A stretch of 61,992 bases of DNA, the filler included, from Dirinaria sp. TL-2023a (lineage: Eukaryota): the NCBI GenBank assembly GCA_051941275.1. It is 8 parts of 8 records of this genome, joined end to end, with 100 filler letters (N's around TTAATTAATTAA, not from the genome) between each part and the next. Parts side by side here need not be neighbours in the genome. Positions count along the whole stretch, not along the records: positions 54,363 to 61,992 come from JAVEBF010001289.1; 7 more parts are not named here. One strand, given 5' to 3'. Numbering within the stretch: the first letter of the stretch is position 1; each line of letters begins with the position of its first letter. This document shows, piece by piece, positions 45,143 to 61,992 of the stretch. The notes under the pieces are model-generated. The model saw only the letters and a program-made list of their open reading frames with translations, ran no database searches and was not told where the DNA came from. Both the position numbers and the translations under genes were made by a program.

Positions 45143-45754
45143 TCATACTACAGTACAAACGACCGTGCTGTCAGGCTGCACCCCTGCGCGTAAATGCAAT
45201 TGATACCAGTCATGCTGATGCTGCAATAGATTGCCATTATAATACAGTTCAACCCTGGAAAGATCGGCGCATCCAACAAATTCACCTGCACGTCGACGCA
45301 GCTCACCGACTGTCGCAGAGCCGGCGAAGAATTGAAATGTCCAGAAACGTGTAATGTATTGATTCGGCCCATGCAGGATGAAAACTTTGATTGGCCGTTC
45401 TTCCCCGGCATTTGAGGGGCAAGTATTTGTACTGGTCTTGGCTTCAGGCTCAGGTGTAGGCGTCCGAGGTTCTGGGACATGTTGGGAAGCGGATGATGAG
45501 CCAGCAGCAGCCTCTTCGCCCTCGTCATTGTCTTCGGGATAGTCAGGTTCGTTGAAGTAATCCTCTTTAGCATCGTTTGCGTGAGATTTATTGCGGATAG
45601 TGTTCCCAAGGGAATGAGCCTTTTGGGTATCAGTTTGGAAGCTATCGTCGTCATGAGAGTTGGGTGCTTTAGACTTGATGCCGATGCCAGGTAGTGAGTG
45701 AAGTGTGCTGGAGGGTGTGGATGCAGTATTGACGGATAAGTCAGCAACGGCCAT
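45143..45754 (-). CDS. Hypothetical protein with acidic linker and C-terminal ubiquitin-like domain
   Basis: IKVFI...ATVGELRRR...VELYYNGNLL...GVQPDSTVVC resembles the beta-grasp Ubl pattern; no terminal GG. Confidence 0.6.
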   Translation of the reverse strand: MAVADLSVNTASTPSSTLHSLPGIGIKSKAPNSHDDDSFQTDTQKAHSLGNTIRNKSHANDAKEDYFNEPDYPEDNDEGEEAAAGSSSASQHVPEPRTPTPEPEAKTSTNTCPSNAGEERPIKVFILHGPNQYITRFWTFQFFAGSATVGELRRRAGEFVGCADLSRVELYYNGNLLQHQHDWYQLHLRAGVQPDSTVVCTVV

Positions 45755-46510
45755 TTTGTAGGTTGACCTAGAGGATAAGATGAGGTGATATGGCTCAGAC
45801 TCATGATTTTCCGGGTCATCACCTGTTTTTAATAGTGTCCTTGCACAAAGCCATGCCGCTAGACAACGAATAGCACCTGCAACCAACTTTAGCAAAGAAA
45901 GCAAACAGGACGTTGATGTTGTGTCTGTCAGTTCTCAAAGCAGTTTATGCACCTTTTGATCAGGAATACTGCATACCTTATCTTGCATCCAGCTTTGAAA
46001 GGAATCAAAGAACTTCCGACTTGGTAGCTGGAGACTGGATGCTTGGCAAATTGTCGCTCAATTCTCCTGATTTGTTAAGATAACGGAGCAACAAACCGTC
46101 AAAGAAAAAAGGAAAGGATTCCTCTGTTGCAGACAGCAAGCTCCGGTGCTTCATCTGTCTTGACACTGCCTGAGCTATCTTTAGAGCCCGACTGCCTTGA
46201 GAATTTTATATCGTAGCAAGAGAACCAATAGCTTCTAATCTCTTATGCTCGACGAGCAGAACTCATCTTGGGTCGCCTCTGCTATCGCAATGCTATAACT
46301 GTCGGTCAGCTCAGCAGCGAAATGATCCATAACTCTACGATATGGGTTAGATCATCGGCAGCTTCACAAAGACAAGATGATATTGGCCGTTCTCATATCC
46401 ACACCCTTCTTCATGACTGCAACCCCTTCGCCATTTTTTATCCCTTTTGCCTGAGCTTCTAATTGAACCATCCCGTTGTACTTCGGCAATCTTAAATTAC
46501 TGGCCACATG

Positions 46511-57033: not shown

Positions 57034-57820
57034 TCTGAGAGATTCAGACCACGCAATGCGTGATACCTGTGAGCAAGAAGCAGGAGCTTGATGGGGATAG
57101 CAGGTGGAGCTCTTCGTATTCTGTGTTTCAGTGATCAAGCCGGGACTGTCGTGAAGGTAGAGTTTCGTAATCTAGTCAGTCTTTGATGAGCGATGCCTTG
57201 CTCATTGCTTATCAGCTAAGATGTGATGCGTTGGATTAAGATGCTGCCTGGTTCATTGTCATCAATAGAGTGGCTTGCTTCAACTTGACAGCCTTTGCGA
57301 CAAAATAATGTCAGGGTCCAACCTAAGATCGATGCCAAGCAATGCTACTGTAGCTTGGCGAGCCTAATCCCAAAAGAGCCGAGGGGAGCATCGAGCCCTC
57401 GAGCGCCTTGAAGGTAATAATGTAGTTGGTAAGGTACCTTACGTTCAAGTCATCATTCTTTTTCTGTGCTGTCATAAGGAACACTTTTCTTTAATACATG
57501 GCTACTGTGCAGAACGGTGGGGTTCAAACTATTATGTGTAAGGATCGGATTTCCCACACAGTTGTCTACTTGGCCATGTCAGTATCAGGTTACAGCATTA
57601 GCAAATCACCCTTTGATACTGATGGCTGCGGGGAGGCAGAGCAAAGAGTACGACTGATTGCAGCTCTTTGTGGTTAGTCGCAATTGGGTCTAGCATACAA
57701 CCAACGCCCCACATGCATCAAGAACCGCTCCTGAAAGTCCTTCCGATCTTTTCTCGAAAAACAGAAAGCTCCTTGTTCAGGAGTCGGTCTGCTGAAACTG
57801 TCCAGACCGCTTACTCTCTC

Positions 57821-58563
57821 CTATCCGTATATTAATCGGAAAACATCATTGAATACAAAGTAACTCCCAGCGCCGTCCGGCAGCAGTTGGAAGACCTGGC
57901 TATAGTTCATGGGCCGTTGCTCTTCATCGACCTATAGGCACAGAATATTTCGATTAGTATATATGCTCTGCATCTGTCATACAGCTGAAGCAAGGGCATA
58001 CCAAGAGAGCGCCGGTCACCATTACCAATATTCCACCATTTTCATTTGACGGTTGAGCATCCTGCGTATTGATCTTGTGTATGACCTTCTTGAAAGGTAA
58101 TGACTGGGCCGGGTATGAGCATCGAAGTCCACAAGGACGTTGTTCTACCTACATCGAGTTTCTCAATAATCCCGGCGACACCTTGAATTGCTGAAGTTTC
58201 GAAGGTGAGCATCGATTGGTCGCGCTGGCAAGAAATGTCAAAGTCAGCGTCGCTAAAATAGCTGGCATTCATGCCGAGAACGTACATAAAGAGCTGCTAG
58301 GTTCTTTCGGTCATTGTCGAAGGTGTTGTAATAGAACTGGGTAAATTGCTCTAAGGAAGAATTAGGCTGTACGATCACAATAGGTGTATGTTTGTGCCTG
58401 CGCAGCTCTGGTGCGCCAGAGGGCTACCCACGTGCAATAGCATTGAAGTCTATCGACACTGTCAGTACATTCTCGATCTACCTTGATGTGGATGCGCTGG
58501 GAAGCCCAAGCATCTACCACCATGCGCAACAGAAAGGTTGGACGCATGAGGCTTACCACCCAT
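57821..58563 (-). CDS. NTF2: Nuclear transport factor 2 (multi-exon)
   Basis: Spliced product MGDFNAIAQQFTQFYYNTFDNDR..LYRDQSMLTFE..SLPFKKV..DAQP..VTGALL..PMNYSQVFQL..YFVFNDVFRLIYG*. Confidence 0.96.
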
Positions 58564-58970
58564 TGTATTCGATGTGTTTCAGATGAGATGGTGGACTGTT
58601 CGGCTTGATGCTCGAGTCCCTAAAGCGAAATGTACTTTGCAGATAGACAGGAACTTTGAAGGTTGAATCGCGGGATGATGAACGCCGCGGCAACAAGCGC
58701 GGGGTGTTCTCCGATTCGCCAAATGTGTGTTTTCTCAGCACTCCGACCAGGGCTTATTCAATCTCCCACTCAAAGTACCAGACCGCAATCCAGTGTTGTA
58801 GGTAGGGATTCAAGCTGTTTCGTAAGAAAAATGGCCGTCTTACGCGATGGTTTAGAATATTCAAGGGGATACATCAGGATCTCCATGTTAGGGCCCTACT
58901 CGGCCGACATACTGGTGAGCTTCCTGACACGTTAGACACTATCTCTGTTTGCCAGCAAACCTGCTTGCTG

Positions 58971-59056
58971 TTCTTATGATGACTCGTCTTCTAAACGATA
59001 ACTTCTGATTTCCATGAAGTATACAACTCAAATTCAAGCTCAACAGTCTGATTATT
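58971..59056 (+). ncRNA. Box C/D snoRNA with two rRNA antisense guides, intronic
   Basis: Box C ATGATGA 58976-58982; guide TAAACGATAACT 58992-59003 + D' CTGA 59005-59008; C'-like ATGAAGT 59014-59020; guide TCAAGCTCAACAG 59034-59046 + D CTGA 59048-59051. The guides complement 18S AGUUAUCGUUUA and 25S CUGUUGAGCUUGA. Confidence 0.9.
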
Positions 59057-59217
59057 ATCATCTATCTCTTCTGCGAATATCCTTGTACTACATGTCTACA
59101 TTTGTACTAATAAAGTCAGTAGTGGGATACTCGTCGTTTGGCAGAGTGTGTATGAGTCCTGCTCCACGTATGTAGAATCGGACTCAATGATTCGCAACAA
59201 CGCGGGAATAGAACGAG

Positions 59218-60076
59218 ATGGATGATCCAACCCGACCGTCAAGCGGATCGAAGACCCCTATTTCCACTTGTGATACAATCTATCTCCGTAACCTTCGCCT
59301 TTCCGCCAACGTCGAGCCGGATGCTTGGGGTCGCCGCGGAAAGAGCCAGCCGATCATTATCAATTTGCAGTTGCATTTGGACACAACGTGGTCTGGCATC
59401 TCGGATGACCTTCAACATTCGTTTAGCTATGGCCAAATGTGTAAAGATCTGATCTTCCACATCGACGCTGGGAATTTTGATTTTAATAGCTTGGGGGATC
59501 AGTTATTCCAAATTGCATCACGCTGGCCTGGAGAGTCAGTAGACTGCAAGCTTACGCTGCCAAAAGCGCTACTTCTGGTTGAAGAAGGCCTTAGCCTTCA
59601 ATTTCAGATTGTCAAGCGCGCTGAAGACATTTGGAAGTTCTCCAAAGTTGAATGGCACATCAAGGGTTTAGAGCCAGCATGTATAATTGGAGTCAATGCA
59701 CATGAGAGGCTGGAAAAACAGACGGTCAACGTTGAATTGCATTTCTCCGAAGAAGAAGAGCAGAACCCGTTCAAGTCACAACAAATTGACCCTTGGCGCT
59801 GGCGAAGTCTGGTCACGGAAGTGAACAAGGTTCATCAACAACAGATCAACCTTCTGCGGAAACCCTGCTGACAGAGCAAATCTCCAGGTTATTGAAGATT
59901 CTGCCTTTGAAACGTTAGAGGCTCTGGCTGCTTTGATTGCCAAGTCCTCTTTGATCAATATGCCTCTGTCCAGGGTCGAAGTAATGGTGGAGAAGCCTAG
60001 TGCATTACCTCACGTCGAGGCATCAGGCGTGAGGATCAGTCGGGATAGAAGATACTTCAGCCTTGGAAATCCGTGA
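59218..60076 (+). CDS. Stand-alone tandem-domain dihydroneopterin aldolase (two FolB-like domains)
   Basis: DTIYLRNL..PDAWGR.GKSQP, FSYG and CIIGVNAHERLEKQ; intron 59830-59887; FETLEALA..VEKPSA. Confidence 0.88.
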
Positions 60077-60570: not shown

Positions 60571-61747
60571 ATGTCGAGTGCTCTAGATCAGCTAAAGGCC
60601 ACCGGCACCACCGTCGTCTGCGACTCTGGCGACTTCGCAACCATTGGAAAATACAAGCCCCAAGATGCCACAACGAATCCGTCTCTGATTCTTGCTGCAT
60701 CAAAGAAAGAAGAGTATGCCAAATTAATGGACGTTGCTGTTGCCTATGGCAAGGACCATGTAAGTCCGCCATGGCTGACTAGAGAGCAAACTCTTTCCAA
60801 GCAATCGGCATTGCATGGGTAGCGTGGGATAAAATACTGATTCATGTTGCAGGGCAAAGATATTGATGAGAAGGTCGATGCCACTCTCGATCGACTGCTA
60901 GTCGAATTTGGAAAAGAGATCCTGAAGATCGTCCCGGGCAGAGTCTCGACAGAAGTTGATGCCCGTTTCTCGTTTGATGTGCAAGGCTCCATTAATAAAG
61001 CTCTCCATATCATCGATGTAAGCTGCACAATGGTCCGCCATCATCACCGGATACTAATTTCCCCCAGCTTTACAAAGACCAGGGCATTGACAAGAGCCGG
61101 ATCCTCATCAAACTCGCTTCGACATGGGAGGGAATCAAAGCAGCTCATGAGCTGCAGAGCAAGCATAGCGTCAATTGCAATCTTACCTTGATGTTCTCCC
61201 TCCCACAAGCAATCGCTGCTGCCGAAGCCGGAGCCTTCCTTATCTCTCCATTCGTTGGCCGCATTCTAGATTGGTACAAAGCCGCAATGAAGAAAGATTT
61301 CGCCCCAGCCGAGGATCCGGGTGTCAAGAGCGTGCAAGACATCTTCAATTACTACAAGAAGTATGGCTACAAGACAATAGTGATGGGAGCCAGCTTTAGG
61401 AACGTTGGAGAAATCACGGAGCTGGCTGGCTGCGACTATCTTACTATTTCGGTCAGTCAATCTCATTGGCTTTGAAAGGCTTTAGACTAATAAATGATCT
61501 TTCGCAGCCAAACCTTTTGGAAGACCTCTATAACTCGCAAGACAAGGTCCCCCAAAAGCTGATCGCGAGCGACGCTAGCAGCCTCAACATCCCAAAGCGC
61601 TCCTACATCAGCGACGAATCGAAGTTCCGTTTCGACTTCAATGAGGAACAAATGGCGGTTGAAAAGCTTCGGGAGGGTATCTCGAAATTCGCAGCTGACG
61701 CCATTACCCTGAAGGGCATCCTGCAAAAGAAGATTGAGAGCGCTTGA
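60571..61747 (+). CDS. TAL1: Transaldolase (4 exons)
   Basis: [48 protein letters not shown] and VMGASFRN; introns at ~60760-60852, 61018-61067 and 61452-61507. Confidence 0.98.
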
Positions 61748-61992
61748 TTCGGGGATCTGGACAGCTGTGACGAGTGATGTTTGTGAATAAATTGGAACAT
61801 GCCTTACCATTAGATCAAAGAAATCGTTTACTGCAGATGCAATGGTCCGTTAATGTCGGTCCCAGCTTCAAACCCATTGAATTACCCTCATCACCTGATA
61901 ACGCTATCATGTTCTATACTAGTTCCAACTCGTTCATGGTTTTATCTCGGCCCACCTTCCATCCTCATTAAGGCCACTCCCCCACCTCTTCC

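Follow-up and report, generated by a model that had tools for sequence, protein, structure and literature searches.

The plus-strand segment 58976-59051 of the window, the whole 61,992-nucleotide stretch of Dirinaria sp. TL-2023a DNA analysed here, is most probably (about 85%) an intron-borne dual-guide box C/D snoRNA of the CD20/snR88/snoR58 family, predicted from its sequence to direct methylation of both 25S and 18S rRNA. The family and its 25S site are already published (PMC2780460). The parts that are possibly new are a conserved guide for 18S U111 and a turnover of D′ guides at a place in the genome anchored by the NTF2 gene. Statements drawn from papers cited by PMC number refer to the portions of text and tables covered here.

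The core measures 76 nt from C box to D box, an extent given by the boxes and not by RNA ends. It opens with the C box ATGATGA (58976-58982), followed by a 22-nt stretch whose last part is the 12-nt D′ antisense element TAAACGATAACT (58992-59003) plus one base, and then by the D′ box CTGA (59005-59008). A 5-nt linker separates the D′ box from a degenerate C′ box, ATGAAGT (59014-59020). The spacing from C′ box to D box (CTGA, 59048-59051) is a 27-nt stretch that ends in the 13-nt D antisense element TCAAGCTCAACAG (59034-59046) plus one base; all of these features lie on the plus strand. The segment therefore has what is expected of a box C/D snoRNA: a C box of the RUGAUGA type, a CUGA D box, internal D′ and C′ boxes, and guides of at least 10 nt that end 1-2 nt before D or D′. 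A first-pass annotation of this DNA had read the same C/D′/C′/D layout with antisense elements of 12 nt and 13 nt, and every part of it was found again in its place. When the guide duplexes were judged against N. crassa 26S and yeast 18S segments from published fungal rRNA, position 59000 (D′+5) faced yeast 18S U111, and position 59043 (D+5) faced the 25S U that corresponds to U2372 in N. crassa and U2410 in S. cerevisiae.

The 13-nt D guide is that of a known snoRNA. N. crassa CD20 (EU780944; Liu et al. 2009) is an intronic RNA of 75 nt that was cloned and was positive on northern blots, and its D guide is assigned to 26S-Um2372 through a 13/0 duplex (PMC2780460). Over the 18 nt that make up the D guide and D box, TCAAGCTCAACAGTCTGA, the window RNA is identical to CD20 at 18 of 18 positions. 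The two RNAs also have in common the C box with the C that follows it, the 13-bp 26S target at N. crassa Um2372, a location within an intron and nearly the same length (75 nt for CD20, 76 nt for the core in the window). They differ in the D′ region, where the 12-nt 18S antisense element is present only in the window RNA; in the part of PMC2780460 covered, CD20 has no annotated D′ target. Outside the boxes and the D guide, only a T/C-rich stretch close to the C box, containing CTTC, is common to both. This family comparison was made on the CD20 sequence. S. pombe snR88 and Arabidopsis snoR58 are linked to the window RNA through the homologues listed for CD20 in Table 1 of PMC2780460, which gives none for S. 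cerevisiae or human.

The equivalent nucleotide in S. cerevisiae was obtained from a neighbouring site. N. crassa Um2383 is the target of snR78 (PMC2780460 Table 1), and the snR78 target in S. cerevisiae is 25S-2421 (PMC5824354); the offset of 38 between them, which takes an 11-nt span of conserved sequence to be free of indels, makes the D target N. crassa U2372 the equivalent of S. cerevisiae U2410. An earlier assignment of the D guide to a 25S U at about U2410 in S. cerevisiae numbering is thus supported both by the snR78 offset and by the identity to CD20. The accompanying remark that budding yeast is not methylated at these sites agrees, for the 25S guide, with the lack of an S. cerevisiae homologue in Table 1 of PMC2780460. 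The novelty that was implied does not hold, since both the 25S site and the guide RNA are already in the literature as N. crassa CD20 with its snR88 and snoR58 homologues (PMC2780460). Nor is it exceptional for one snoRNA to serve both subunits, which we would regard as routine. N. crassa CD17, CD22, CD41, CD44 and CD49 are each assigned one 18S and one 26S target in the same table; they are likewise dual-subunit guides, with other targets and from other families.

The D′ guide was placed on 18S rRNA by counting along a published oligonucleotide. The oligonucleotide, described in the yeast Am100 paper as "complementary to A76 - T125 of yeast 18S rRNA" (PMC3938493), contains the 12-mer of the window, and a count from its ends pairs the D′ guide with yeast 18S 108-119, with U111 at D′+5. 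The same count lands A100 at its published place. The complement of the D′ 12-mer is also contained in a Candida albicans 18S 5′ probe. The oligonucleotide count bears out the target nucleotide proposed in the first-pass annotation, the second U of AGUUAUCG in 18S, and corrects the label attached to it: the site had been called the equivalent of human Um121, and by the count it is yeast U111. The human equivalent of yeast U111 would be approximately U110.

A search for published methylation at 18S U111 (Um107 to Um112 as whole words, and modifications of the Thermomyces 80S ribosome) found none among the literature matches listed. Neither target was found in the portion covered of the A. fumigatus Table 1 (PMC2377427) or in the T. 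rubrum Table 2 (PMC3890542) from below its first rows onwards. The main text of the fungal snoRNAome (PMC5824354), as far as covered, mentions neither CD_20 nor snR88 nor either site; a D′ target specific to some lineage may already be catalogued for this family in Supplemental Table S14 of that paper. Because N. crassa CD20 carries a different D′ region, for which the covered part of its publication annotates no target, the D′ guide is lineage-restricted.

The RNA evidence on the host transcript comes from four runs of a single sample labelled lichen metagenome; its contigs match at ~93-95% identity and represent a relative, not this organism. One contig (run X3, one of the four runs) joins 58796-58914 to 59133-59258 with 10 other letters between the two segments, and this join sets the donor exactly at the GTGAGC that begins at 58915. 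The acceptor is the TAG at 59120-59122 if the contig is read without gaps, or the CAG at 59117-59119 if the relative differs by 3 nt. The excised intron is accordingly ~205-208 nt long, lying on the plus strand within 58915-59122, and exon 1, part of the 5′UTR, reaches at least as far upstream as 58796 (58796-58914, plus strand). The branch sequence ACTAAT (59106-59111; CTAAT, 59107-59111) is one that other introns in the window, themselves confirmed, use as well. Of the intron bounds proposed earlier, the donor at 58915 is confirmed by the spliced contig of the relative, and the acceptor ending at 59119 is possible, with 59122 as the alternative. The D box had been put about 55-60 nt from the branch point; the distance measured to the branch A is 58-59 nt, and the median in the family is 56-57 nt. 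The RNA contigs leave 58972-59105 uncovered, and they derive from a type of library that is unable to show a mature snoRNA.

Exon 1 contains an ORF that starts at ATG 58831 and runs for 28 codons before the splice (58831-58914). Beyond the splice it either ends immediately or continues for 10 more codons, according to which acceptor is used. A frame that closes so soon is an upstream ORF, which places the intron in the 5′UTR. The upstream ORF might affect translation of the downstream coding sequence; it is not conserved in the alignment of the L019 group, which is described below.

The exon that follows the intron starts at ~59120-59123 and carries the first coding exon of a dihydroneopterin aldolase gene (FolB/DHNA; 59218-59827, plus strand, ATG at 59218), recognised by Pfam PF02152 FolB with an E value of 9.4e-14. 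Contigs of the relative span 59133-59827 and then splice over 59828-59885. On the other side, the NTF2 coding exons (57800-58366, minus strand) are arranged head-to-head with the host transcript, and their minus-strand introns are confirmed by RNA contigs. The snoRNA had been described as sitting in an intron upstream of DHNA and divergent from NTF2, and the spliced contig of the relative, which enters the DHNA exon, agrees with that description. Contigs of the relative also cover the sequence upstream of NTF2 (58367-58703, minus strand) as far as ~58703, and 58679-58833 carries a contig of low depth; taken together, these place the starts of the two divergent units within ~100 nt of each other or make the units overlap. 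A transaldolase-like gene, named from a reading of its ORF translation, is located 3′ of DHNA (60571-61750, plus strand), with introns at 60760-60852, 61018-61067 and 61451-61506 confirmed by RNA contigs.

Homologues were collected by scanning metagenome contigs with a pattern that consisted of TGATGA, a gap, and the D guide with its D box. The D′ region lay outside this pattern and the C box was part of it, so that conservation of the C box among the homologues is by construction. The scan yielded 110 loci, which represent 80 distinct sequences besides the window. They fall into three groups by what stands in the D′ slot: (i) class A, with the D′ element of the window or a near variant of it (26 distinct sequences from 35 loci, or 27 sequences with the window); (ii) class B, with the D′ element TTAAGAACGGCCA (28 distinct sequences from 40 loci); and (iii) the remainder (26 distinct sequences from 35 loci), which includes Neurospora-like forms and a few probable chance matches.

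The 18S guide of the window recurs widely in this collection. Of the 80 distinct homologues, 22 contain the exact 11-mer AAACGATAACT, 11 the 12-mer and 23 the 10-mer core. One base after the 10-mer, a D′-like box follows in all 23 (CTGA in 18, CCGA in 3, and ATGA and CCTA in 1 each). Within class A, mean pairwise identity is 0.84 for the C′ box, 0.41-0.59 for the linkers and 0.30-0.32 for the flanks; the value of 0.92 for the D′ guide is partly by construction, the class being defined by its D′ element. The four closest loci (L019, L030, L075 and L086) can be aligned with the window essentially across the snoRNA only. Two class A sequences, L017 and L059, have T for G within the D′ guide (AAACTATAACT) and lose one pair against a yeast-type 18S; this change may be covariation, given an A at the paired position of their own 18S.

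Class B sequences (L005, L009 and L029, for example) resemble the window in the D guide, in their placement within a short intron and in the head-to-head NTF2 gene. They differ in the D′ element, which is followed by ACTGA and whose complement is a 12-mer of universal 18S primers, as these are listed in the literature. By the D′+5 rule, the class B element would aim at another 18S site, a C. A further exchange is seen in L091 (295-382) and L105, where the U2410 D guide is paired with the D′ guide of snR61/Z1/Z11; L091 scores 61.1 bits with Rfam RF00476. From their sequences, we interpret L091 and L105 as guide modules recombining between families.

A short motif near the C box is also held in common. 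Of 81 distinct family members, 62 have CTTC within 20 nt after the C box (58986-58990 in the window); in a control segment, 2 of the 81 have it. By group, it is found in 23 of 27 class A sequences, 26 of 28 in class B and 13 of 26 of the others. It is complementary to a GAAG that precedes the 26S target by a few nucleotides, as deduced from the duplexes of CD16 and CD20 in N. crassa (PMC2780460). Extra base-pairing of snoRNAs with rRNA has been described (PMC3116282), and CTTC is a candidate for pairing of this kind.

The intron setting recurs in the family as well. A donor-like hexamer within 200 nt on the 5′ side together with a branch/YAG sequence within 200 nt on the 3′ side was found in 16 of 23 class A sequences (the window included), 19 of 25 in class B and 12 of 24 of the others; when the complementary strand of these segments was read as a control, the numbers were 2, 0 and 6, respectively. 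NTF2 exons lie upstream on the opposite strand in 44 of the 61 loci that have at least 1000 nt of upstream sequence (class A, 16/20; class B, 23/25; others, 5/16). The C box lies 436-696 nt from the NTF2 exon in class A and 610 nt from it in the window. Among the 21 class A loci whose downstream sequence extends for 900 nt or more, 3 (L019, L030 and L075) have DHNA downstream on the same strand, as does the short locus L086. The gene is convergent in L042, and in L005, L035, L065 and L067 the nearest downstream gene recognisable by Pfam is convergent. The conserved setting of the family, as judged from these loci, is a short intron head-to-head with NTF2, with DHNA as a lineage-specific coding part of the host. 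Conservation of the arrangement NTF2-snoRNA-DHNA had been named in the first-pass annotation as a check on its proposal, and here its two halves part: the NTF2 link is widespread, and the DHNA link is confined to the closest relatives.

The box pattern by itself is no rarer than chance would make it. In the whole window, the bare pattern has 2 matches where 0.54 are expected; 2 or more matches arose in 13 of 100 shuffles, and the excess is not significant. The guides with their boxes are far more specific: with up to 2 mismatches allowed, the D′ guide plus box and the D guide plus box each occur once in the window, with expected numbers of 0.01 and 0.02. The other match to the bare pattern is at 45741-45821 on the minus strand, and the stretch before its D box resembles the sense strand of the 18S segment addressed by class B. 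As a candidate for a second snoRNA it was rejected as probably a chance match, that stretch being sense-like and not antisense.

The predicted fold of the element is unremarkable, with an MFE z-score against shuffles of -0.76. No clear terminal stem is seen: the window has 2 contiguous flank pairs, and 0-2 such pairs are found in 66 of the 80 family members scored. A 6-bp hairpin (CAGCAA ... TTGCTG, 58953-58970) stands just 5′ of the C box in both the MFE and the centroid folds, but the closest relatives show no conservation of it.

Rfam at gathering thresholds, which had been suggested as a check on the snoRNA, returned no family anywhere in the window and, in 20 homologous loci, none over the family element. 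Permissive scanning of 58700-59300 brought up two matches, both below threshold and one of them on the wrong strand. RF00360 (snoZ107_R87, a plant box C/D family) scored 14.7 bits against a gathering threshold of 50, with an E value of 3.6. In the cmscan alignment the antisense stretch ATTCAAGCTCAACAG is common to this model and the window RNA, and the guide sits in another part of the model than in the window RNA. Membership in RF00360 was rejected on the score, and the likeness is that of RNAs targeting the same rRNA site.

There are other ways to read the locus. One is that the motifs are a chance arrangement or the remains of a decayed, functionless snoRNA pseudogene. The number of box pattern matches in the window, a terminal stem that is not evident and the fact that the mature RNA was unobserved (in contig libraries that could not show it) are all in keeping with such an explanation. 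It is nevertheless highly improbable, because the D guide and D box are identical over 18 nt to a snoRNA that has been cloned, the boxes and guides are kept in a further 26 distinct sequences of class A with flanks that cannot be aligned, and both the intron placement and the synteny with NTF2 are conserved. In another, activity would be limited to the D guide, on 25S, and the conserved D′ element would act in helper base-pairing or in snoRNP assembly, or would address some RNA other than 18S (an snRNA, tRNA or mRNA). N. crassa CD20 is indeed annotated as a single guide in the covered part of PMC2780460, and the D′ region is evidently interchangeable, given the 28 distinct sequences with another 18S-complementary element and the snR61 guide in L091 and L105. 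The frequent CTTC, moreover, could pair with the GAAG 5′ of the 25S target in the manner of PMC3116282. Yet the D′ element is an 11-12 nt sequence exactly antisense to a universally conserved 18S segment, with a U at D′+5, and a canonical CTGA follows it in 18 of 23 sequences before a conserved C′ box. From the antisense fit to 18S, the CTGA and the C′ box we infer an active C′/D′ unit, and it is because this unit is canonical and conserved that activity of the D guide alone is rather improbable.

A different kind of alternative concerns the host. The snoRNA could be carried by a non-coding or independent transcript divergent from NTF2, with the join to DHNA a lineage-specific read-through or a secondary capture. 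The distribution of neighbours speaks for this: the NTF2 link is present in 44 of 61 assessable loci, a same-strand DHNA gene in just 3 of 21 class A loci and L086, and DHNA or another nearest downstream gene is convergent in L042 and in L005, L035, L065 and L067. The upstream ORF of exon 1, which stops shortly after the splice, fits it too. We nonetheless consider it unlikely, as the contig of the relative that contains the exon 1 junction reaches 59258, within the DHNA coding sequence. It would, in any case, change the identity of the host and not the mechanism, the snoRNA being intronic either way.

For the preferred reading, an intronic snoRNA with two active guides, established box C/D snoRNP biology supplies a mechanism. 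The host pre-mRNA would start close to the divergent NTF2 promoter, and exon 1 (to 58914) would be spliced onto the exon with the DHNA start codon. The excised intron would be debranched and trimmed by exonucleases to the snoRNP-protected core, which is expected to accumulate as a small RNA in this organism, bound by Snu13, Nop56, Nop58 and the methyltransferase Nop1/fibrillarin. Within the particle, the D guide would form 13 bp with 25S and direct 2′-O-methylation of the U that corresponds to U2410 in S. cerevisiae (Um2372 in N. crassa), and the D′ guide would form 12 bp with 18S and direct 2′-O-methylation of the U equivalent to S. cerevisiae U111.

The finding leaves the general understanding of box C/D snoRNAs as it was, dual-subunit guides being routine (PMC2780460). 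Its more novel side lies in two further readings, an undescribed 18S Um site equivalent to yeast U111 and a turnover of D′ guides at the NTF2-anchored locus, which we offer tentatively, at somewhat less than an even chance. On the first, a broad range of filamentous ascomycetes would share the conserved 18S site, which S. cerevisiae and N. crassa would lack. On the second, the snoRNA gene would have occupied a short intron head-to-head with NTF2 over a very long span of time, with its 25S guide kept, and its D′ slot would have been refilled at least three times (with guides for 18S U111, for a second 18S site and of the snR61 type) and emptied in Neurospora-like lineages. The first reading predicts that fungi with AAACGATAACT have Um at the equivalent of 18S U111 and that N. 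crassa-like fungi do not. The snoRNA family is detected by no Rfam model and is missed by annotation pipelines based on Rfam, and its fixed place beside NTF2 provides an orthology anchor for tracing the swaps of D′ guides.
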